A stretch of DNA of 64,000 nucleotides, from assembly GCF_963921235.1 (NCBI RefSeq), contig NC_086097.1:81408001-81472000 (forward strand), written 5' to 3'. The notes below the pieces were generated by a model, which saw nothing but the letters and a program-made list of their open reading frames with translations, did not search any database and was not told the DNA's origin. The stretch comes from Mobula hypostoma. Lineage: Eukaryota. Position numbers and translations under genes: made by a program. This document shows positions 3,394-58,870 of the stretch, piece by piece; position 1 is the stretch's first letter, and each line of letters opens with the position of its first letter.

Positions 3394-5550
3394 AGAACCA
3401 TAGAACCATAGAAACTACAGCACAGAAATAGGCCCTTTGGCCCTTCTTGGCTGTGCTGAACCATTTTCTGCATAGTCCCACTGACCTGCATACGGACCAT
3501 ATCCCTCCATACACCTCCCATCCATGTATCTGCCCAATTTATTCTTAAATGTTAAAAAAGAACCCGCATTTACCACCTCGTCTGGCAGCTCATTCCATAC
3601 TCCCACCACTCTCTGTGTGAAGAAGCCCCCCCTAATGTTCCCTTTAAACTTTTCCCCCTTCACCCTTAACCCATGTCCTCTGGTTTTTTTCTCCCCTTGC
3701 CTCAGTGGAAAAAGCCTGCTTGCATTCACTCTATCTATACCCATCATAATTTTATACACCTCTATCAAATCTCCCCTCATTCTTCTACGCTCCAGGGAAT
3801 AAAGTCCTAACCTATTCAACCTTTCTCTGTAACTGAGTTTCTCAAGTCCCGGCAACATCCTTGTAAACCTTCTCTGCACTCTTTCAACCTTATTTATATC
3901 CTTCCTGTAATTTGGTGACCAAAACTGAACACAATACTCCAGATTAGGCCTCACCAATGCCTTATACAACCTCATCATAACATTCCAGCTCTTATACTCA
4001 ATACTTTGATTAATAAAGGCCAATGTACCAAAAGCTCTCTTTACGACCCTATCTACCTGTGACGCCACTTTTAGGGAATTTTGTATCTGTATTCCCAGAT
4101 CCCTCTGTTCCACTGCACTCCTCAGTGCCTTACCATTAACCCTGTATGTTCTACGTTGGTTTGTCCTTCAACGTGCAATACCTCACACTTGTCAGTATTA
4201 AACTCCATCTGCCATTTTTCAGCCCATTTTTCCAGCTGGTCCAAGTCCCTCTGCAGGCTCTGAAAACCTTCCTCACTGTCTACTACGCCTCCAATCTTTG
4301 TATCATCAGCAAACTTGCTGATCCAATTTACCGCATTATCATCCAGATCATTGATATAGATGACAAATAACAATGGACCCAGCACTGATCCCTGTGGCAC
4401 ACCACTTGTCGCAGGCCTCCACTCAGAGAAGCAATTCTCTACCACCACTCTCTGGCTTCTTCCATCGAGCCGATGTCTAATCCAACTTACCACCTCTCCA
4501 TGTATACCTAGCGACTGAATTTTCCTAACTAACCTCCCATGCGGGACCTTGTCAAAGGCCTTACTGAAGTCCATGTAGACAATATCCACTGCCTTCCCTT
4601 CATCCACTTTCCTGGTAACCTCCTCGAAAAACTCCAACAGATTGGTCAAACATGACCTACCACGCACAAAGCCATGTTGACTCTCCCTAATAAGCCCCTG
4701 TCTATCCAAATGCTTGTAGATTCTGTCTCTTAGCACTCCCTCCAATAACTTACCTACTACTGACGTTAACCTCACCGGCCCATAATTTCCCGGATTACTT
4801 TTCGATCCTTTTTTAAACAACGGAACAACATGAGCCACTCTCCAATCCTCCGGCACTTCACCCGTAGACAGCGACATTTTAAATATTTCTGCCAGGGCCC
4901 CCGCAATTTCAACACTAGTCTCCTTCAAGGTCCGAGGGAACACTCTGTCAGGTCCCAGGGATTTATCCACTTTAATTTTCCTCAAGACAGCAAGCACCTC
5001 CTCCTTTTCAATCTGCACAGTTTCCATGGTCTCACTACTTGATTCCCTCAATTCCATAGATTTCATGCCAGCTTCCTTAGTAAATACAGACGCAAAAAAC
5101 CTATTTAAGATCTCCCCCATTTCCTTTGGTTCCGCACAAAGCCGACCACTCTGATCTTCAAGAGGACCAATTTTATCCCTTACAATCCTTTTGCTCTTAA
5201 TATACTTGTAAAAGCTCTTTGGATTATTTCACTTTGACTGCCAAGGCAACCTCATGTCTTCTTTTTGCCCTCCTGATTTCTTTCCAGTATTTTCTTGCAC
5301 TTCTCATACTCCTCAAGCACCTGATTTACCCCGTTTCCTATACATTTCATACAACTCCCTCTTCTTCTTTATCAGAGTTGCAATATCCCTTGAGAACCAA
5401 GGTTCCTTATTCCTATTCAATTTGCCTTTAATCCTGACAGGAACATACAAACTCTGCACTCTCAAAATGTCCCCTTTGAAGGCTTCCCACCTACCAATCA
5501 CATCTTTGCCAGAGAACAACCTGTCCCAATCCACGCTTTTTAGATCCTTT
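3394..5550 (-). mobile_element. Young 5'-truncated CR1 LINE
   Basis: ORFs 5313-5585, 4122-5120 and 3415-4113 form consecutive CR1 ORF2 pieces. The 3' tail is (TCTATGGT)n at 3394-3415. Confidence 0.97.
3415..5550 (-). pseudogene. CR1 ORF2 reverse transcriptase, frameshifted
   Basis: RT motifs DFSKAFDKV, GVPQGSVLGPLLF and FADD, plus the C-terminal LVRPNLEYCVQFWSP. Frameshifts occur near 4120-4160 and 5220-5300. Confidence 0.95.
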
Positions 5551-10782: not shown

Positions 10783-12337
10783 ACGCTCAGTGGTGCCGCC
10801 AACATTGTGGCCTCTCTCCCAGATGGGCACAATCGCTTTTACACTCGGTTCGATGTCGCTAACTCTGAGCCTCCGAGGAAAGCCACCCCTACAGCCTGCA
10901 ATCTGGTCATCTCTGAGGCTGAGGACAACTGGCAGGTGTGTTTATAGACATTTTTAATCTCTGCCTCTCCCAGTATAGAGTGCCCTCCTGCTTCGAATTA
11001 TCCACAATTGTCCCTGTACCAAAAAAGACCAAGGTAACACTCCTGAATGACTGGCGTCCTGTCGCACTCACCTCAATAATAAGCAAATGCTTTGAGAGTC
11101 TAGTCAAGGATTACATCTGCAGCTTGCTGCCAACCAAACTGGACCCCCTACAATTTACCAACACAACCAATCAACAGATGACGTAATAGCCACCACTCGA
11201 CATATCACCCTTGCACATCTGGAGGAGGATGCTTATGTGAGAATGCTGTTCTTGGACTACAGTTCAGCATTCAACACCATAATTCCATCCAGGCTCAACA
11301 AGCAGCTCAGAGACCTCAGCCTTGACCCTGCCTTGTGCAGCTGGATCCTGGACTTCCTGTCAGATTGTGGCAGGTTGTAAGAATGGGCTCCCTCACCTCC
11401 AATCCTTTGACTCTCAATACAGGAGCCCCTCAGGGCTGCGTACTATACAAGGGAGTAAAGGAGGTCAAGGTAATCCTTGACCTCCTTTACTCCCTTGTAC
11501 ACCCATGACTGTATCGCCACCCACAGCTTCAATGTGCTAATTAAACTTGCTGATGATACTACATTGATTGGCCTTATCTCAAACAATAACGAGGTGGCTA
11601 CAGGGAAGAAGTTATTTCTCTGACACAGTGGTGTCAAGAAAACAACAGCTCCCTTAATGTCGCAACAACAAAGGAGCTGGTTGTGGATTGCAGGAGGAAT
11701 GGAGATGGACTAACCCCTATCGACATCAATGGATCTGGGGTTGAGAGGGTAAACAATTTCAAGTTCCTCGGCATCTACATCACTGAGGACCTCACGTGGT
11801 CTGTACACACCAGCTGTGTGGTGAAAAAGGCACAACAGCGCCTCTTTCACCTCAGATGGTTGAGGGAGTTTGGTATGGACCCCCAAATCCTAAGAACTTT
11901 CTACAGGGGCACAATTGAGAGCATCCTGACTGGCTGCATCACTGCCTGGTATGGGAACTGTACCTCCCTTAATCACAGGACTCTGCAGAGAGTGGTGCAG
12001 ACAGCCCAGCGCACTTGTAGTTGTGGACTTCCCATGATTCAGAACATTTACAAGGAAAGGTGTGCAAAGAGAACCTGTAGTATCATTGGAGACTCAAGTT
12101 ATCTCAACCACAGTCTATTCCAGCTGCTACCATCGGGAAATGGTACTGCAGCATAAAAGCCGTGACCAACAGGCTCCGGACAGCTTCTTCCACCAGGCCA
12201 TCAGACTGATGAACATTGAACATATTACATTGGCTGTTCTACTTATCATAAATTATTATAACTTACTTTGATTGCACATGGCACACTTAGATGGAGACGT
12301 AACATAAAGATTTTTACTCCTTTTGTATATGAAGGAT
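10783..12337 (+). mobile_element. Rex1/Babar non-LTR retrotransposon, 5'-truncated; tail resumes at 17941-17975
   Basis: ORFs 10938-11186 ([18 protein letters not shown]) and 11683-12156 (FKFLGIYITEDLTW, KKAQQRLFHLR, FYRGTIESILTGCITAWYG). Confidence 0.92.
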
Positions 12338-13180
12338 AGAAACATAGAAAACCAACAGCACAATACAGGCCCTTTGGCCCACAAAGCTGTGCAGAACATG
12401 TCCTTACCTTAGAACGACCTAGACTTACTCATAGCCCTTTATATTTTGAAGCTCCTTGTACATATCCAGGAGTCTCTTAAAAGACCCCATCGTTTCTGCC
12501 TCCACCACCAGCAATGGCAGCCCCTTCCATGCACTCACCACTCTCTGCGTAAAAAACTTACTCCTGACATCTCCTCTGTACCTACTTCCAAGCACCTTAA
12601 AACTATGCTCTCTCGTGCTAGCTGTTTCAGCCCTGGGAAAAAGCCTCTGACTATCCACACAATTAATGCCTCCCATTACCTTGTACATCTCTATCAGGTC
12701 ACCTCTCATCCTCCGTCGCTCCAAGGAGAAAAGGCCGAGTTCACTCAACCTATTCTCATAAGGCATGCTCCCCAATCCAGGCAACATCCTTGCACCGTTT
12801 GCTCCCTTTCTATGGTTTCCACGTCCTTCCTGTAGTGCGGCGACTAGAATTGAGCACAGTACTCCAAGTGGGGTCTGACCAGGGTCCTATATAGCTGCAA
12901 CATTACCTCTTGGCTCTTAAACTCAATTGCACGGTTGATGAAGGTCAATGCACCGTATGCCTTCTTAACCACAGAGTCAACCTGCACAGCAGCTTTGAGT
13001 GTCCGAAAGACTCGGACCCCTAGATCCCTCTGATCCTCCACACTGCCAAGAGTGTTACTATTAATGCTATATTCTGACATCATATTTGACCTACCAAAAT
13101 AAACCACCTCACACTTAAGCAACACACATCAAAGTTGCTGGTGAACACAGCAGGCCAGGCAGCATCTGTAGGAAGAGGTG

Positions 13181-13218
13181 CAGTCGACGTTTCAGGCCGA
13201 GACCCTTCATCAGGACTA
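13181..13218 (-). ncRNA. Minimal type I hammerhead ribozyme in the PLE pLTR
   Basis: Minus strand reads tagtc-CTGATGA-agg gtctcgg cct-GAAA-CGTC^gactg. It has the full catalytic core, stem I agtc/gact, stem II agg/cct and a palindromic ACGT stem III. Confidence 0.85.
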
Positions 13219-13515
13219 ACTGAAGGAAGAGTGGGTAAGGGATTTGAAAGTTGGAGGGGTAGGGGAAGATCCAAAATGATAGGAGAAGACAGGAGGGGGA
13301 GGGATAGAGCCAAGAGCTGGACAGGTGATAGGCAAAAGGGGATACGAGAGGATCATGGGACAGGAGGTCCGGGAAGAAAGACAAGGTGGGGGGGGGGGAC
13401 CCAGAGGATGGGCAAGAGGTACATTCAGAGGGACAGAGGGAGAAAAAGGAGAGTGAGAGAAAGAATGTGTGCATAAAAATAAGTAACAGGTGGGGTACGA
13501 GGGGGAGGTGGGGCC

Positions 13516-16467
13516 TTAGCGGAAGTTAGAGAAGTCGATGTTCATGACATCAGGTTGGAGGCTACCCAGACGGAATATAAGGTGTTGTTCCTCCAACCTG
13601 AGTGTGGTTTCATCTTTACAGTAGAGGAGGCTGTGGATAGACATGTCAGAATGGGAATGGGATGTGGAATTAAAATGTGTGGCCACTGGGAGATCCTGCT
13701 TTCTCTGGTGGACAGAGCGTAGATGTTCAGCAAAGCGGTCTCCCAGTCTGCGTCGGGTCTCGCCAATATATAAAAGGCCACATCGGGAGCACCGGACGCA
13801 GTATATCACCCCAGTCGACTCACAGGTGAAGTGTTGCCTCACCCGGAAGGACTGTTTGGGGCCCTGAATGGTGGTAAGGGAGGAAGTGTAAGGGCATGTG
13901 TAGCACTTGTTCCGCTTACACGGATTAGTGCCAGGAGGGAGATCAGTGGGGAGGGATGAGGGGGACGAATGGACAAGGGAGTTGAGTAGGGAGCGATCCC
14001 TGCGGAATGCAGAGAGAGAGGGGGAGGGAAAGATGTGCTTAGTGGTGAGATCCCATTGGAGGTGGCGGAAGTTATGGAGAATAATATGTTGGACCCGGAG
14101 GCTGGTGGGGTGGTAGGTGAGGACCAGGGGAACCCTATTCCAAGTGGGGTGGCGGGAGGATGGAGTGAGAGCAGATGTACGTGAAATGGGGGAGATGCGT
14201 TTAAGAGCAGAGTTGATAGTGGAGGAAGGGAAGCCCCTTTCTTTAAAAAAGGAAGACATCTCCCTCGTCCTAGAATGAAAAGCCTCATCCTGAGAGCAGA
14301 TGCGGTGGAGACGGAGGAATTGCGAGAAGGGGATGGCGTTTTTGCAAGAGACAGGGTGAGAAGAGGAATAGTCCAGATAGCTGTGAGAGTCAGTAGGCTT
14401 ATAGTAGACATCAGTGGATAAGCTGTCTCCAGAGACAGAGACAGAAAGATCTAGAAAGGGGAGGAAGGTGTCGGAAATGGACCAAGTAAACTTGAGGGCA
14501 GGGTGAAAGTTGGAGGCAAAGTTAATAAAGTCAACGAGTTCTGCATGCGTGCAGGAAGCAGCGCCAATGCAGTCGTCGATGTAGCGAAGGAAAAGTGGGG
14601 GACAGATACCAGAATAGGCACGGACCATAGATTGTTCCACAAACCCAACAAAAAGGCAGGCATAGCTAGGACCCATACGGGTGCCCATAGCTACACCTTT
14701 AGTTTGGAGGAAGTGGGAGGAGCCAAAGGAGAAATTATTAAGAGTAAGGACTAATTCCGCTAGACGGAGCAGAGTAGTGGTAGAGGGGAACTGATTAGGT
14801 CTGGAATCCAAAAAGAAGCGTAGAGCTTTGAGACCTTCCTGATGGGGGATGGAAGTATATAAGGACTGGACATCCATGGTGAAAATAAAGCGGTGGGGGC
14901 CAGGGAACTTAAAATCATCGAATAGTTTAAGAGCGTGAGAAGTGTCATGAACATAGGTCAGAAGGGATTGAACAAGGGGTGATAAAACAGTGTCGAGGTA
15001 TGCAGAAACGAGTTCGGTGGGGCAGGAGCAAGCTGAGACAATAGGTCGGCCAGGACAGGCAGGTTTGTGGATCTTGGTTAGGAGGTAGAAATGGGAAGTG
15101 CGGGGTGTGGGAACTATAAGGTTGGTAGCAGTGGATGGGAGATCCACTGAGCGGATAAAGTTGGTGATGGTGTGGGAGACAATGGCCTGGTGCTCCTTAG
15201 TGGGGTCACGATCGAGGGGTAAATAAGAGGAGGTATCCGCGAGTTGTCGCTGTGCCTCGGCAAGGTAGAGGTCAGTACACCAGACTACAACAGCACCCCC
15301 CTTATCGGTGGGTTTAATAATAAGGTTAGAATTAGTGCAGAGGGAGTGGAGAGCAGAGCGTTCGAAAGGAGTGAGGTTGGAATGGGAACAAGGTGCGGTG
15401 AAGTCGAGACGGTTATGTCCCGTCGGCAATTAGCGATAAAGAGATCCAGAGCAGGCAGAAGACCAGAGCGGGGTGTCCATGAAGAAGAGGAGGGTTGAAG
15501 ATGAGAAAAGGGGTCATCGGTGGGGGTGGAAGAGTCCTTGCCGAAGAAGTAGGCTTGGAGATGGAGACGGCGGAAGAAAAGTTCCGCATCATGGCAAACA
15601 CGGAACTCGCTGAGGTGTGGGCGAAGGGGGACAAACGTGAGGCCCTTACTGAGAACAGAGCGTTCTGCCTCCGACAGTTGAAGGTCAGAGGGGATGGTAA
15701 AGACCCGGCACGGATGAGAGCTGGGATCAGAGGGGGGAGGGGGGAGGCTGGGGGTGTCAATGGAGAGGGGAGGGTTGGGGTGAGAGGAAGGTGGAGTCTC
15801 TGAGGGCCCAGGAGTTGACGGTGGGATCTGAGGAAGACGGGGCTGCAGAGTGGTGGTGGGGGAAGGGGAGACGGGAGTCACAATAGCAGCACATAAAGAC
15901 CCGGCCTGGAGTTCAAGGCTGGAGTCGCAGTTGGTGGTTGCGCAATCGCTGTGAAGCTGTCCATGGTCGTTGCTGGAGTCCGCGTTTTGAATATGCCCTG
16001 AGGTGTTGGAACCGGCGAGATCAATGGCAGGAGCCGCAATCTGAAGTTCATGCCTGCTAGTTTCAGGGCCAGCAGGCTCTGGAGTCTGTAGATGTAGGAT
16101 CTTGCGATCCTTGCCTAACATGACAAAGTCAAAAAAACGGCGATTGCAGGCGTGAATCCGATGGAGGATGAAATAACATGTAGGACCATTACAGACGGTG
16201 AAGAAAGTGTCCCGAAGGTGTGGAAGGGTCTGGGATAGGGACACCAAGTACCTCCTCATGGCGGAGAGAGTCACCTTCAGAGCTTGACAGGAGAAGCGGC
16301 AAGAGGCAGAGTCAATAAAATGTGAGTACCTGGGATCCTCAGAAGGTCCAAATTGAGAGGCTTGGAAACGAATCCTAAAGCCAACTGGAGTAAGTTGGCG
16401 ACGGAGGCACGTTCCAAGAAAGGATATATGGCTGTGATAGCGAGTCTGAGTCAAAGTGTGGTCGAAA
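13516..16467 (-). CDS. PLE polyprotein: N-terminal region, RT, Cys linker and GIY-YIG endonuclease (one frameshift near 15415)
   Basis: Motifs KPTDKGGAVVV, KIHK, GRPIVS, DVQSLYTSIP, GVAMG, RYIDD, the linker CKRNKCYTC and GVIYCVRCSRCGLLYIGET. The upstream part lies in ORF 15285-16571 (LSKGLTFVP..NCRRDI). Confidence 0.92.
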
Positions 16468-18264
16468 ACCTCACACTTATCTGGGTTGAACTCCATCTGC
16501 CACTTCTCAGCCCAGTTTTGCATCCTATCAATGTCCCGCTGAAACCTCTGACAGCCCTCCACACTATCCACAACACCCTTAACCTTCGTGTCATCAGTAA
16601 ATTTACTAACTCATCCCTCCACTTCCTCATCCAGGTCATTTATAAAAATCACAAGAGTAAGGGTCCCAGAGCAGATCCCTGAGGCACACCACTGGTCACC
16701 AACCTCCATGCAGAATATGACCCATCTACAACCATTCTTTGCCCTCTGTGGGCAAGCCAGTTCTCGATCCACAAAGCAATGTCCCCTTGGATCCCATGCC
16801 TCCTTACTTTCTCAATAAGTCTTGCATGGCGTACCTTGTCAAATGCCTTGCTGAAATCCATATACACTACATCTACGGCTCTACCTTCATCAATGTGCTT
16901 AGTCACATCCTCAAAAAATTCAATCAGGCTCGTAAGGCACGACCTGTCTTTGACAAAGCCATGCTGACTATTCCTAATCATATTATGCCTCTCCAAACGT
17001 TCATAAATCCTGCCTCTCAGGATCTTCTCCTTCAACTTACAAACCACTGAAGTAAGACTCACTGGTCTATAATTTCCTGGGCTATCTCTACTCCCTTTCT
17101 TGAATAAGGGAACAACATCCACAACCCTCCAATCCTCCGGAACCTCTCCCGTCCTCATTGATGAAACAACGATCATCGCCTGAGGCCCAGCAATCTCCTC
17201 CCTCGCTTCCCACAATAGCCTGGGGTACATCCCATCCAGTCCCGGTGACTTATCCAACTTGATGCTTTCTAAAAGCTCCAGCACATCCTCTTCCTTAATA
17301 TCTACACACTTAAGCTTTTCAGTCCACTGTAAGCCATCTCTACAATCGCCAAGATCCTTTTCTGTAGAGAATACTGAAGCAAAGTATTCATTAAGTACCT
17401 CTGCTATCTCCTTCGGTTCCATACACACTTCTTCACTGTCACACTTGATTGGTCCTATTCTCTTGTATCTTATCCTCTTGCTCTTCACATACTTGTGGAA
17501 TGCCTTGGCGTTTTCCTAAATCCTGTCTGCCAAGGCCTTCTCATGGCCCATTCTGGCTCTCCTAATTTCATTCTTAAGCTCCTTCCTGCTAGCCTTATAA
17601 TCTTATAGATCCCTATCATTACCTAGTTTTTTGAACCTTTGAAGCTTTTCTTTTCTTCTTGACTAGATTTACAACAGCCTTTGTACACCACGGTTTCTTT
17701 ACCCTACCATCCTTTCCCCGTCTCATTGGAATGCACCTATGCAGAACCCTACGCAAATATCCCCTGAACATTTGCAACATTTCTTCCATACGTTTCCCTG
17801 AGAACATCTGTTTCCAATTTATGCTTCCAGTTCCTGCCTGATTGCCTCATATTTCACCTTACTCCAATTAAATATTTCCCTAACTTGTCTGTTCCTATCC
17901 CTCTCCAGTGCTATGGTAGAGGAGACAGAGTTGTGATCACAAGGATGTACGAAATAAAGTCAATTCATTCATTCATTTTAAGCTTATTTGGCACAACATT
18001 GTGGGCCAAATGGCCGGTTCCTGCGCTGTACTGTACAGTGTTCTATCAGTAAGATTATATTAAATCTCAAGTGATCCACACACTCCTTTTCCTCAATAAC
18101 ACTTATAGCTATATTTAGGTTCCTGCTTCAAAGAGGCTAAGGTACCAATAAGCTGTCAGAATCAGTCAAAATGCATTCAAGAAGCTTCCATTTCTGCTCA
18201 TTTGAGCTTGGTGATGTTAACTGCAGTGCAATAGATCTCAATGCCAGAGAACTGGTAACATTCA

Positions 18265-19820
18265 GATCCCTGCTGCACCTGATGACCCTGTGATCTCTGT
18301 CTCAAAGGCTGATGTTAGGCTGTCTTTAAAGAAAGAGAAGGTCCCGATGGAGTACCTGGTAAGGCTCTGAAAACCTGTGCCAACCAACTAGCGGGAGTAT
18401 TCAAGGACATTTTCAACTTCCCACTGCTACGGGTGGAAGTTCCCACTCGGTTCAAAAAGGCAACAATTATACCAGTGCCTAAGAAGAATAATGTGAGCTG
18501 CTTTAATGACCATCACCTGCTAGCACTCACATCGACAGTGAATTCCTGCCTTAGCAAGCAGCTGGACCCATTGCAATATGCCTATCGCCACAATAGGTCA
18601 AGGGCACATGCAAACTCAATGGCTCTCCATATGGCTTTAGACCACCTGGACAACACAAGCACCTACGTCAAGATGCTGTTCATCGACTATAGCTCAGCAT
18701 TTAATACTATCATTCCCACAATCCTGACTGAGAAGCTGCAGAACCTGGGCCTCTGTACCTCCCTCTGCAATTGGATCCTCAACTTCCTAACCGGAATACC
18801 ACAATCTGTGCGGACTGGTGATAACATATCCTCCTCGCTGATGATCAACACTGGAGCACCCTAGGGGTGGGTGCTTAGCCCACTGCTCTACTCTCTGGCT
18901 CGGCTTAGTTCAAATACCATCTATAAATTTGCTGATACAACCATTGTTGGTAGAATCTCAGGTGGTGACGAGAGGGCGTACAGAAGTGAGATATGCCAAC
19001 TAGTGGAATGGTGCCATAGCAACAACCTGGCACTCAACGTCAGTAAGACAAAAGAACTGATTGTGGACTTCAGGAAGGGTAAGACAAAGGAACATGTACC
19101 AATCCTCATAGAGGGATCAGAAGTGGAGAGAGTGAACAATTTCAAGTTCCTGGGTGTCAAGATCTCTGAGGATTTAACCTGGTCCCAACATATTTATGTA
19201 GTTTTAAAGAAGGCAAGACAGCCACTGTACTTCATTAGGAGATTGAAGAGATTTGGCATGTCACCAAATACACTCAAAACCTTCTACAGAGGTACTATGG
19301 AGAGCATCTGACAGGCTGCATCACTGTCTGGTATTTGGGGGGTGGGGCACTACTGCACGGGACCGAAAGAAACTGCAGAGGGTTGTAAATCTTGTCGGCT
19401 CCATCTTGGGTACTAGCCTACAAAGTAACCAGGACATTTTCAGGGAGTGAAGTGTCAGAAAGGCAGTGTCCATTATTAAAGACCCCCAGCACCCAGGGTA
19501 TGCCCTTTTCTCACTGTTACCATCAGGTAGGAGGTACAGAAGCCTGAAGGCACACACTCAGCGATTCAGGAACAGCTTCTTCCCCTCTGCCATCCAATTT
19601 CTAAACAGATATTGAAACCTTGGACACGACCTCACTTTTTTTTCCAATACACGGTATTTCTGTTTTTTGCACGTTTTTTAAAATCTATTCAATATACATA
19701 TACTATAATTGATTTATTTATTTTTCTCTTCTAGATTATGTATTGCATTGAACTGCTTCTGCTAAGTTAACAAATTTCACATCACATGCCGGTGATAATA
19801 AACCTGATTCTGATTCTGAA
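18265..19820 (+). mobile_element. Rex1/Babar element, 5'-truncated
   Basis: ORFs 18433-18864 (MLFIDYSSAFNTIIP) and 18871-19311 (YKFAD, FKFLGVKISEDLTW). AATAAA and a (CTGATT)n tail at about 19797-19819. Confidence 0.93.
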
Positions 19821-22288: not shown

Positions 22289-22597
22289 GGCATCCATTAG
22301 TCTTGCGAGACCATGGATCTGCACCTGGAAAGTCTTCACTCTCCAGGGTGCAGGCCTGGGCAAGGTTGTATGGAAGACCAGCAGTTGCCCATGCTGCAAG
22401 TTTCCCCTCTCCAGGACACCAATGTTGTCCAAGGGAAGGGCATTAGGACCCATACAGCTTGGCACCAGTGTCGTCGCAGAGCAATGTGTGATTAAGTGCC
22501 TTGCTCAAGGACACAACACGTTGCCTCGGCTGGGGCTCGAACTCACGACCTTCAGATCGCCAGTCCAATGCCTTAACCACTTGGCCACGTGCCCACA
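22289..22597 (-). mobile_element. Full-length tRNA-derived SINE
   Basis: Head with A box TGGCCAAGTGG and B box GTTCGAGCC. Perfect 9-bp TSD GATCAATAA at 22280-22288 and 22598-22606. Confidence 0.9.
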
Positions 22598-22734: not shown

Positions 22735-23685
22735 TGTAACACAGGAGGAACTCCAGCAGGTGAGGCAGCATCTACAGAAATGAATAAACAGTCGACGTTT
22801 CGAATCGGGATCCTTCCTCAGGACTGAAAAGGAAGGAGGAAGGTGCCAGAATAAAAAAGGTGGGAGGAGTGGAAGGAGAATAGCTAGAAAGTAATAGGTA
22901 AAGTCAGGTGGGTAGGGAAGGCCATGGGCAGGAGAAGAAGGAATTTGATAGGAGAGGAGAGTGGACCATAGGACGAATGGAAGAAGGAGGGGACTCATGG
23001 GGAAGTGATAGGAGGAGAGAAGAGGTAAAAGGTCAGACTGGGAAATAGAAGAAGAGGGAAGATGGAGGGATTTATTTTTACCAGGAGAAATCAATATTCA
23101 TGCCATCAGGTTGGAGACTATCCAGATGTAATATAAGGTGTTGCTCCTTCATCCTGAGAGTGGCCTCATTTTGGCACAAGAGGACACCATGAACTGAGGT
23201 GTCAGAGCTGGAATAGGAATTGGAATCAAAATGTTTGGCCATCGGGAACTTCTGCTCATGGCAGAAGGAGCGAAGGGTATTCAATGAAGCGGTCCCCCAA
23301 TTTTCAATGAGTCTCACCAATGTAGAAGAGACCACACTAGAAGCATCAGACACAATAGATGGCTCCAGCAGATTCACAGGTGAAGTGTTGCCTCATCTGG
23401 AAGGACTGTATGTGAGACGGTAGAAGTCGCAGAGAATGTTATGCAGGATGCAGAGGTTGATAGGGTGGTAGGCAAGGACAAGAGGAACTCTTATCTCTGT
23501 TAAAGCAGTGGGAAGTTGGAGTGAGTGTGGACATTAAGGAAATAGAAGAGATGCGGGTGAGGACGTCTCTGATGTTCTGGAACAGAAAGCATCATTCTGG
23601 GAACAGATACAGCAGAGGCAAAGGAACTGAGGAAAAGGAATAGCATTTTTAACAGGAGATAGGGCAAGAAGAGGTATAGCCAACA
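22735..23685 (-). mobile_element. Degraded Penelope-like element 3' part with pLTR
   Basis: ORF 23078-23377 (EATLRMKEQHLILHLDSLQPDGMNIDFS) is homologous to the C-terminus of 13516-15429. Confidence 0.88.
22789..22826 (-). ncRNA. Hammerhead ribozyme motif (pLTR copy)
   Basis: cagtc-CTGAGGA-aggatcccgattc-GAAA-CGTC^gactg. Core and stem I are intact, stem II is weakened. Confidence 0.65.
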
Positions 23686-36354: not shown

Positions 36355-36560
36355 TAACACACATAAAATGCTGGAGGAACTCAGTAGGTCAGGCAACACC
36401 TATGGAAATGAATAAACAGTCAACGTTTCAGGTTGAGACCCTTCTTCAGGACTGGAAAAGAAGGGGGAAGACACCAAAATAAAAAGATGGGGGGGAGGGA
36501 AGGGACGTGAAGCCAGGTGCTTGGGAAAGGTAAAGGGTTGGAGAGGAAGGAATACACCAA
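36355..36560 (-). mobile_element. PLE pseudo-LTR fragment with a hammerhead motif at 36417-36454
   Basis: cagtc-CTGAAGA-agggtctcaacct-GAAA-CGTT^gactg. Homologous to 13118-13330. Confidence 0.82.
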
Positions 36561-44615: not shown

Positions 44616-45482
44616 ATCTAATATGACTTCAGATACGATATTATGTAGTTATTCAGCCTGTTGAGGATTTCCACCATCAAATTAGGTCACATATGACTGA
44701 TATTTCAGTTAATTTATCTGTATTGCTCATATCACTCAATATTAAAACCTACTTCTAGGTAAATTTTGAAAAAAAACTGACCGTGAGACCAACAATCTGA
44801 TCAATCTGCATTTTTATTTCAAATTTTCATCAGTCTTTGTGTGAAAAGAGACTTCCTGTTATTACACCTGAAATATTTGCTGCTAATTTTAAGATCAAAA
44901 CTATCTATTCTGCAGTTCCCTATCTGTGAAATTAGATTCTCTCTTCCTGGCCTACTAAATCTCTGAATTATTTTAAATATCTTGACTTTTTTAAAATTCC
45001 AATGAGTTCTGCACCTTGGTGAAACAATGTGTTAAACATTTGTTAAACAACTACTTGAATAAGAACACAGAGCAGCACTGTCAATGTAACAATAGCCTGA
45101 TGTGTCACGAATTTAGAGGAAGGGTGAGGTTTCAATTCCCTAATCCAACCTGCCCAATTCAGATTTCACCAAAAGTATGACAAAGGCCAGGCAGCCAAAA
45201 AACATTCAGTCAATGGCTTAGTCATCGAGATCTTGTGGGTCAAGTGTAACTAAGTCTAATCACATGCTGCTGTAGATCCGATATCTCAACCAACTGGAAG
45301 CTCAGTCCAGGATATGAGCTAAACTCACAAAGTTCACAATTTCAGATCACTGCCTATGGAGCAATGAGGTGCAGCAGTGTTGCTGTACAAGCACATCGCC
45401 TTGCCTGTCTGCAGATTTTTGCCTTTCCCATTAAGAAAATACCACTCTGGAATCCAAAGAAAAAATAACAGTTATTCTAGCT

Positions 45483-45685
45483 AAGCAACACACATCAAAG
45501 TTGCTGGTGAACGCAGCAGGCCAGGCAGCATCTCTAGGAAGAGGTACAGTCTTCGTCAGGAAGGGGTCTCGGCCTGAAACGTCGACTGTACCTCTTCCTA
45601 GAGATGTTGCCTGGCCTCCTGCATTCACCAGCAACTTTGATGTGTGTTGCTTGAATTTCCAGCATTTGCAGAATTCCTGTTGTTT
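45483..45685. mobile_element. Palindromic PLE pLTR insertion (inverted plus forward copy)
   Basis: 69-bp inverted arms at 45483-45551 and 45584-45652 with 3 mismatches. TSD GTTATTCTAG at 45471-45480 and 45686-45695. Confidence 0.9.
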
Positions 45686-46941
45686 GTTATTCTAGTTAAT
45701 GTCCTTTTGCCATCATTTTGCCTATCCAATTAATCTGTCATTTGTAATTCCTTCACATCTTCTTTTAAATTGTTGTTATCCTAAAATGCGTCAGGAGAAC
45801 AAGAATAAGCCAAGGCCCAAGCAAACTTTCTTGAGGAACACGGCACATCAGATCTATGCAGAGAAGGAGGCCATTTGATGCAAGGACAGCACTTAAGTTT
45901 CCAAAATTTACCCCACATTTAAACTGCTAAAATGTTTACTTATTATGAAGGCGTTTTGAAGATGCAATTAATTCATTGGTTGACCATTTTCAGTTCAAAA
46001 TAAAATAATCAGTTTTAATATGACACACGTAGCTCTAACTTTGTGAAGATTGACAAATATGCAGGGATATAGTAATCAGGTGATGAATTCGACACCACTG
46101 TGCAGCTAACATTGGTAACAGATTTCCAACATCACCACAGTTCTCTTCATCGACTGCAATGATATGGCTGAGAATTTAGTTCCCAAAAACTTCAGATCAA
46201 TTATTTGCTCCATTCACTCCAACAATTACAGAATCAAGAAACAAAAATCCCACTTCTATCCCGCCAACACTCCATTCTTCATCCCTCATGTCTTCTAATC
46301 CCTCCACCATTCCAGAAACCACCATGAGATGCCCATCATGAATTACCAATTTGTCCCTAGTGATTATGCAGTTTTTCAAAAACTATACATCCAGAGATTG
46401 CACTAGAATACATACTTAGCCCTTTCTTGACTGCAATTCATTTTCTTAGCAAACGTGTTTTTACAGAAGTCATTCATTAAATTCTCCACAGTATTCTGAG
46501 GGGCAATTTTAATTTCCCAACATGGCTTAACTATAAACACTACTTTCAAAACATTTTTAACATACTCGATATTAAACTTAATCCACATCCTCCTTGAATC
46601 ATTACTGCGAGGGAGACATTTTTTCAGAAGATATTTGGAAGATAGTGGCACACAATTTGTTTTTATTCACCTTCCCATTGTTTCTTCAGAAGCTTTTTAA
46701 AAAAAAAGTTACAAGTATTAAAATTGGTTCTTGTGATGAAACGTTCCAGAAGTACCTCAAGGAGTGAATATTTTACCTGCACCGTCAGGGGGTTGAGGAC
46801 TTGATGCAGAAAATAGTTCCAGTTTCACGCAAATGCTTTAGTTTTTTTATGCAGTCCTCACCTCCTGAAAAATTGAAAGCATAATATAAATATAACAATC
46901 ATGTCAGCATCAATTCAGATAATTTCTATACATGTGAAATA

Positions 46942-48149: not shown

Positions 48150-48385
48150 AGTTTGCACATCCTGGAAATCCAAAGCAACACACAAAATGCTGAAGGAAAT
48201 CTGCAGGTCAGGCAGCATCTATAAAAATGAGAAAACAGTTGACATTTCAGGCTGAGATCCTTCCTCAGGGATGAAAAGGCAGGGGGAAGATGTCAGAATA
48301 AAAAAATGGGGGGAGGTAAGGAGGATAGCTAGAAGGTGACAGGTGAAGCCAGGTGGGTAGGAAAGATAAAGGGCTGGAGAGGAGT
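48150..48385 (-). mobile_element. PLE pseudo-LTR fragment with a decayed hammerhead motif at 48236-48273
   Basis: CTGAGGA-aggatctcagcct-GAAA-TGTC with stem I disrupted. Homologous to 36355-36560. Confidence 0.8.
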
Positions 48386-53349: not shown

Positions 53350-53945
53350 CTCTTCCCACAATCCAGGATACAACTGCTGCCAGGGGAAGCAGTAATTTGT
53401 TTGCACTTCGCCCAATTCACCATATTGCATGTGTGCTCAGAACAGATCTTCCTCTGCACTGGAAAAACTGAATTCTAATCTGGAGAGCACTTTACTGAAC
53501 AGCTCTGCTCATTTTACAAGATCAACACTGATCTTCCAGTTGCCCGTTATTTTAATTCTTCATTATAGTCCCATTCTTGCCTTTCTCTTTATCCTCTGAC
53601 ACTGTTCCAATAATGCCCAATACAAATTTAATGAACAGCACCTCTTCTGACACGATTCAGACTTTAGGATTCAATATTGAATTCTACAATCTCAGGGAAC
53701 CACCATCAATCCACCCCCCCCCCACCCCACCCCCAATGATTCTTTACTTTTCCTGTTCCTAGCTTTTTTATAGCAGCAATTACTAGCTGGCCAGCTTCAG
53801 TCTGGACACCATCATAAACTATTTTCCATATTCTCTCTGCAACACTAACCACAATTATATTCTCTTTTTTTCCATTCCGATGAAGTGTTCTTGACTCTAA
53901 ATGTCGACTGTTTCTCTCCCCTCGGGATCCATTTGACATAGTGAG
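53350..53945 (+). mobile_element. Old PLE 3' remnant (GIY-YIG region and decayed pLTR)
   Basis: gagcactttactgaacagctctgctc...gatcttccagttgcccgttattttaattct (DLPVARYFNS). Decayed hammerhead ccgatga...atgtcgactg at 53877-53910. Confidence 0.6.
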
Positions 53946-58379: not shown

Positions 58380-58870
58380 ACTGGAAACACAAACTGCCAA
58401 TGTTCTGAAATTATTCATTCCCGAGGGCTGCAATGTGCTAAATTGGAAGATTAGCTGCCGTGCCTTGAGCATACACCAAGTTTCACTGATAAGAAAGGGA
58501 GGTCAGAATTGGAATGGGCTGGAGAATTAAAATGGCAGGCAACTGTAAGTTTGGGGAAAGTCTTAAAGAATAAACAAAATAATCCATAAAGCAGTCATCC
58601 GAACTACATTGATTTCCCCCTTGCAGGAGTGACATTGTGAGCGTGGAATTATGGTACAAAATCAGGAATACAGAAATGGTCACCCTTTCATGAGAAAGCC
58701 TGTCCTGATGACAGCATAGATGCTGTAAATTCTGCACAATTGATGGGGTGTGAGTTTCGGTAGAGATGGAAGAGGAAACCATGGCATTCTGAAAGGAAGG
58801 TCCACTGAAAGGAAGGGAAAGGGGATGTTTGTTAGGTTGTGGCATCAAGTTGGAGGAGTCAGAAATTACA
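58380..58870 (-). mobile_element. Very old PLE remnant
   Basis: cccgagggctgcaatgtgc..gaagattagctgccg and ggaatgggctggagaattaaaatggcaggcaactg align with 13550-13700. Confidence 0.5.

Follow-up and report, generated by a model that had tools for sequence, protein, structure and literature searches.

On the minus strand of the window, by which we mean the whole 64,000-nucleotide stretch of Mobula hypostoma DNA analysed here, positions 13181–13218 hold a minimal type I hammerhead motif in which all elements are present. We consider it highly probable that the motif belongs to a Neptune-like Penelope element, broken and solo, whose 3′ end it marks, and that the copy itself is a relic, likely silent as a catalyst. 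The kind of motif, its location and the dimer proposal that goes with it are already published. According to Cervera and De la Peña (2014, PMC4209133), Penelope-like elements (PLEs) carry minimal type I hammerheads (min-HHRs) with a palindromic stem III that are proposed to act as dimers, as an earlier note on this DNA had stated, and the present motif fits the consensus given there.

Read along the minus strand, the motif opens with the 5′ arm of stem I (13218–13214), followed by the CUGAUGA core (13213–13207), one unpaired A (13206), a stem II of 4 bp with its loop (GGGU / CUCG loop / GCCU, 13205–13194) and GAAA (13193–13190). The palindrome ACGU (positions 15.2–16.2, 13190–13187), which provides a helix III without a loop, C17 (13186) and the 3′ arm of stem I, GACUG (13185–13181), complete it. 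Helix I surrounds the type I core CUGANGA ... GAAA ... NUH, helix II is preceded by one unpaired base, and the palindromic 15.2–16.2 is in place without a helix III loop. The predicted cut falls between 13186 and 13185, at GUC^GACUG. The earlier note, which had proposed the hammerhead, its ACGT stem III and this predicted cut from the letters alone, is borne out on all three; its stem I of agtc:gact does pair, but measures 5 bp rather than 4, including one terminal U-G. The folding z-score of the 13181–13218 copy is unremarkable (0.29), and since monomer z-scores are uninformative, the evidence for the motif is its sequence pattern and not its folding energy.

A descriptor (CUGANGA, stem II of at least 3 bp, GAAA, NUH and stem I), written after the motif had been seen, finds three intact motifs in the window, all on the minus strand, with cores at 13186–13213, 22794–22821 and 36422–36449. 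An Rfam covariance-model search of the same 64 kb recovered no hammerhead at E ≤ 5; its four matches at that threshold are led by a tRNA-like one. The strict form of the descriptor had no match in each of 200 block-wise dinucleotide shuffles of the window, against three motifs in the window itself, and a chance match was rejected; a loose form averaged 0.055 matches in the shuffles, with a maximum of 1.

Copies other than the one at 13181–13218 belong to a different subfamily or are decayed or rearranged. The motif at 22789–22826 (minus), with an intact core, lies behind decayed PLE coding remnants (23084–23650), and that at 36417–36454 (minus), also with an intact core, is a short 3′ fragment whose GUU triplet could reflect CpG decay; both are of a second subfamily. 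To this subfamily also belongs the decayed motif at 48236–48273 (minus; core 48241–48268), in which both stems are broken. The base paired with G10.1 is U in the 13186, 36422 and 48241 copies and C in the 22794 copy. The copies at 22789, 36417 and 48236 had been listed as variants, with 48236 correctly given as decayed, but not as members of another subfamily. The copy noted at 53877 is heavily decayed (53872–53912, limits approximate), as had been said, but it is a plus-strand copy, preceded by PLE coding remnants of the same strand (53434–53577). The remark that core variation among the best copies is confined to N7 and H holds for the three intact ones, which were picked for an intact core. 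A further decayed PLE endonuclease remnant, in which no hammerhead was detected, lies at 58404–58549 (minus).

The host of the motif is a single-copy, 5′-truncated Penelope element of 3.35 kb (13118–16467, minus) with no 5′ pLTR. A 637-aa frame (13516–15429, minus) encodes the RT (YIDD), a Cys linker (CX4CXXC) and the GIY-YIG part of the ORF, and the N-terminal part continues in another frame (15430–16467, minus), its start missing; the frameshift near 15414–15430 has a counterpart in an indel row at 15414 in contig alignments. Past the stop codon comes a pyrimidine-rich (79%) region (13219–13515, minus), then the hammerhead, about 300 nt beyond the stop, and a terminal segment (13118–13180, minus) that brings the element to its end without the optional tail, 68 nt from the cut. 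The motif thus occupies the terminal region of a PLE. A tandem arrangement with two pLTRs is not seen: 13118–16467 has one terminal region only and hence no native partner ribozyme. The description of the site as a 3′ pseudo-LTR was right about the terminal region, though loosely worded for an element with a single such region and no 5′ repeat.

The insertion itself is delimited on the minus strand by a 12-bp target-site duplication, at 13106–13117 on the 3′ side and at 16468–16479 on the 5′ side, the latter within an interrupted LINE RT frame that resumes beyond 13118–16467. This host LINE, which has an RT domain and which we take to be CR1/L2-like, comprises 12425–13117 and 16468–17515 (minus); the PLE that splits it has the same orientation, and the window holds a related copy at 3415–5228. 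The joint 13105–16468, with 12 shared letters, occurs in 13 contigs of run X1 and 5 of run X9, and is accounted for by uninterrupted relatives of the LINE.

The proteins agree with this picture. Pfam matches on the 637-aa frame were RVT_1 (E 6e-6) and GIY-YIG (E 0.0025), both below the curated cut-offs, and a DKG-motif RT with a C-terminal GIY-YIG, the mark of an EN+ PLE, was found when motifs were aligned with homologues. The CX4CXXC of this protein (P0001) conforms to the CX2-5CxxC RT-EN linker of the Neptune clade. According to the available part of PMC8557442, a Cys linker between RT and EN is a feature of Neptune shared with Nematis, and a 2026 preprint, in the portion accessible, gives only Neptune or Poseidon for vertebrate PLEs. 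From its sequence we call the element Neptune-like, with the linker pointing to Neptune or Nematis. The best named protein matches were from Mobula hypostoma itself (91–92% identity over about 60% of the query), then from Hypanus, Rhincodon and Chiloscyllium, and full-length identity of the ORF to invertebrate-type PLE proteins is about 50%.

A second insertion of the first subfamily lies near 45.5 kb. What had been listed as a rearranged variant at 45552–45588 is indeed rearranged, but it forms the middle of a mini-insertion (45482–45685) with two arms inverted head to head, and holds the whole motif on neither strand. The mini-insertion is flanked by a 10-bp duplication (45471–45480 and 45686–45695). 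Its left arm (45482–45551, minus) is tail-less and begins at the predicted cut site; its right arm (plus) has a 33-nt tail (45653–45685). The first base of the arm at 45551 is the one that follows the predicted cut, and the arm is fused to ten 5′ core bases, with stem II and GAAACGUC skipped and one junction base ambiguous. In this single case, the junction sequence could be a record of cleavage or of an RT that skipped over a hairpin. Two 3′ end positions lie 33 nt apart in the window, tail-less at 13118 and 45482 and tailed at 45685. The mini-insertion (45471–45695) is self-contained, and both RT start sites are visible in one insertion.

At the level of the family, 285,737 contigs of run X1 matched the window. 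Their summed contig depth, which is not the same as copy number and which comes from a run that may be the source sample, drops about 70-fold, from 5.5 million in the motif bin to 70–80 thousand in the 5′ bins. This fall is the profile of 5′ truncation, and most copies are short 3′ ends. Many contigs match nothing beyond 13181–13217: matches of X1 end at the motif edges (775 at 13181 and 549 at 13217), where X9 has 167 and 101 loose ends, and the loose letters downstream of these breaks resemble the second subfamily (22794, 36422, 48241). A tandem pLTR-ORF-pLTR joint was not among the 15 joints listed (of which there are 869 further). Between the subfamilies the 38-nt motif is 79–87% identical, against 55–68% for flanking blocks (three pairs), whereas within the second subfamily the motif, at 74–79%, is no better kept than the adjacent flanks, at 71–82% (three pairs). 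This agrees with selection while lineages are active and with neutral decay once copies have inserted. The scattered copies of the window would then be independent insertions of two subfamilies, decaying neutrally, and selection on the motif would have acted in the active lineages and not on these insertions.

Among the four window copies, covariation is weak. Across stems I and II, 89% of the cells are paired, and one of nine pairs shows a two-sided change (G-C to A-U), in stem II; 251 of 500 shuffles reach the same covariation, which is not significant. Stem I shows no two-sided change among the four copies. For the covariation that the earlier note had named as a check, the outcome is one compensatory stem II pair, short of significance, and none seen in stem I. 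A scan of metagenomes, run with a fixed core, inner stem I and G10.1 but with the remainder of stem II free, returned 38 loci with 28 distinct middles. In the bulged-A register, 18 of the 28 distinct look-alikes form a stem II of at least 4 bp, with many pair types (shuffle expectation: mean 1.1, maximum 7, 2000 shuffles). Only 4 of the 38 loci have a PLE protein match within 600 bases, and the motifs are those of other organisms. As a sequence comparison, this pairing supports the register of stem II in the motif class at large, not in this ray family, and has no bearing on stem I. A pattern specific to the ray family had no match in the metagenome contigs, and the looser motif pattern had none in viral contigs, against the 38 in metagenomes.

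Ten of the metagenome loci (L001, L013, L017, L024, L025, L029, L032–L034 and L037) form one family with a min-hammerhead, in which nine of ten have a 6-bp stem II and one, L032, lies near a PLE protein match; this family is likely host-animal DNA in the metagenomes. Two other matches, L011 (601–634) and L030 (457–496, without a stem II), lie in GC-rich (64–69%) contigs, unlike the other loci, and may be chance or microbial.

The helix III of 13181–13218 has no loop; a canonical monomer hammerhead was rejected. The structure, taken with the available text of PMC4209133, implies that such a helix III forms only between two motifs; a monomer, judging from published relatives, would be unable to close the three-way junction. 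The same text reports no cleavage for a single min-HHR and low cleavage for dimers and trimers, and dimer-enhanced cleavage is described for axolotl retrozymes (PMC7229834) and the dimer model is reviewed in PMC6155905. On our analysis, the motif likely serves a slow, dimer- or protein-dependent processing of the tandem transcripts of active elements. In an active pLTR-ORF-pLTR tandem, a single RNA would hold two motifs at a spacing of about 3.3 kb; these would exchange stem I arms and pair through their ACGU palindromes, probably helped by the element's own protein. A slow cut at GUC^GACUG would trim RNA of unit length, and reverse transcription would start about 70 or 100 nt downstream of the cut and would usually stop early, so that most genomic insertions would carry one motif and no partner. 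The accessible sections of PMC4209133 likewise describe only the 3′ motif in 5′-truncated PLEs.

Protein supplied in trans might still act on relics such as this one, if PLE protein from active copies were to bind downstream of the motif and fold or dimerise it, the 13181–13218 copy included. The available text on Anolis carolinensis (Frangieh et al. 2024, PMC11167929) gives this idea its footing, with a PLE motif that cuts only with the element's protein; the 13181–13218 copy keeps its core, stems and downstream segment, and the predicted cut coincides exactly with the start of the left arm at 45551. We nevertheless regard this account as very unlikely: the 13118–16467 copy lacks both a 5′ end of its own and the tail segment, the portion of the Anolis study at hand records no RNA-seq ends at the cut, and the 45551 case is a single one with a 1-nt ambiguity at its junction. 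Position 13185 is not among the 12 loose ends listed (with 3886 further), and no pile-up was reported, though contigs show ends poorly. Another, hardly credible account has the motif retained chiefly as a folded signal (for protein binding, as a splice acceptor or as a pLTR translation start region) and not for cutting. Core mutants had no effect on insertion in vitro, for which the motif was dispensable (PMC11167929, accessible part), some PLE clades thrive without hammerheads (PMC8557442, likewise), and the 13186, 22794 and 36422 copies have minus-strand pyrimidine tracts ending in AG, a possible splice acceptor, located at stem I or shortly before it (13219–13230, 22823–22840 and 36451–36470), as at the intron end of D. 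virilis Penelope. The invariant letters are nevertheless those of the catalytic core, also across unrelated animals in the available data of PMC4209133, and the C3G/G8C rescue in Anolis shows real catalysis there. No GT-AG joint at stem I occurs among the joints listed; the joint 13213–13556, present in a single X9 contig, does not follow GT-AG, coincides with a 7-nt repeat and is read as a deletion.

The earlier note had further proposed that a minus-strand transcript through the locus would carry monomers able to pair in cis. In such a scheme, a long transcript across 36422, 22794 and 13186 would let the motifs pair as mixed double hammerheads and cut the RNA. All three intact copies do lie on the minus strand, the GACUG arms and the ACGU palindrome are common to the copies, which makes mixed dimers possible in sequence, and a separation of 9.6–23 kb adds only 1.1–2.1 kcal/mol compared with the native 3.35-kb spacing; on this model, distance alone does not rule out pairing in cis. 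Three of three copies on one strand, however, has a chance of 0.25, with other copies on the plus strand, and the mixed double-hammerhead folds are predicted at −10.5 to −12.5 kcal/mol, against −15.6 to −17.5 for two monomers. Across all double-hammerhead folds the figures are −9.5 to −13.5 against −14.6 to −18.4 kcal/mol for two separate monomers, a predicted deficit of 3–7 kcal/mol in a model that omits core contacts, and the best two-strand fold of the 13181–13218 copy is an extended non-hammerhead duplex (−26.7 kcal/mol). The nearest intact partner, the 22794 motif, is 9.6 kb off, of the other subfamily, and prefers another predicted fold, and designed dimers cleaved weakly in vitro according to the accessible part of PMC4209133. 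As a weak test, Pfam recognised no host exon in the open frames of the window: only retroelement domains appeared in 126 minus-strand and 113 plus-strand frames and 24 long ones (frames of at least 61 aa, being 126 of the 148 longest on minus and 113 of the 148 longest on plus, with those inside retroelement ORFs or already scanned left out; short exons would be missed). We find cis pairing here highly improbable, and the claim unsupported, with one listed copy on the plus strand, one without a whole motif and the dimer fold predicted to be disfavoured. Its wider form, in which dispersed relics on one long pre-mRNA would pair into mixed double hammerheads, either unaided or with PLE protein, and cleave host transcripts, stands an equally slim chance; it arises because motifs are dense in the genome and the stem I arms and ACGU are common across subfamilies. 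Were it true, a dead retroelement family would amount to a genome-wide, orientation-dependent cleavage system, and insertions whose first base lies at the cut, the arm at 45551 among them, would be records of germ-line cleavage.

The motif resembles three known systems. With the metazoan PLE min-HHR, as far as the available text of PMC4209133 describes it, it shares the type I layout, CUGANGA followed by one unpaired base and stem II, GAAA-C-G-U-H, a palindromic 15.2–16.2 with a helix III without a loop, the position in a terminal repeat, a solo 3′ motif in 5′-truncated copies and the presence of several families per genome. It differs in a short stem II (4 bp) that opens with G-U, an opening seen also in the cichlid and Xenopus rows of that source. 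The species in the portions of its Fig. S3 and Table S1 that were examined include no cartilaginous fish. Poseidon PAc of A. carolinensis resembles it in the pLTR hammerhead and the optional tail of 30–40 bp, and its reverse transcription, on the evidence of the accessible text (PMC11167929), starts at two sites bounding the tail, which may be compared with the two 3′ ends 33 nt apart in the window; unlike PAc, the 13118–16467 element has the Neptune/Nematis Cys linker. Non-LTR retrozymes (PMC7229834; bioRxiv 10.64898/2026.07.22.740005; both available in part) likewise have a type I hammerhead and a link to PLE pLTRs, with dimer-dependent cleavage in axolotl and a report from one chondrichthyan. 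Retrozymes, however, are short tandem repeats with mostly canonical motifs, whereas the window copies are dispersed single insertions; a retrozyme tandem array was rejected, as these copies are 9.6–13.6 kb apart with unrelated spacers. Searches combining Penelope-like with Mobula, shark or chondrichthyan, in which few subscription journals were covered, found no publication on this ray PLE family. With this finding, a motif class known since 2014 gains a cartilaginous-fish example; beyond that, the finding matters little, and a single broken copy does not settle the in vivo role of PLE hammerheads. A genome with very many young copies does suit statistical tests, such as intron strand depletion and 5′ junction positions.

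Three further features of the sequences were observed. Some 200 nt downstream of the 22794 motif, at 22532–22594 (minus), lies a tRNA-like sequence (Rfam 30.2 bits, E 0.027) that is likely the head of a SINE. RefSeq names two PLE-derived proteins, P0004 and P0015, after host genes (divergent protein kinase domain 1C isoform; chitinase domain-containing protein 1 isoform), which suggests that PLE sequence has been drawn into ray gene models. On the plus strand, the retroelement fragments at 11590–12156 and 18319–19311, the second of which stands behind an RT match, have a Pfam match to ALKBH8_N (PF09004) at their C-terminal end, and are likely another LINE family rather than host exons.
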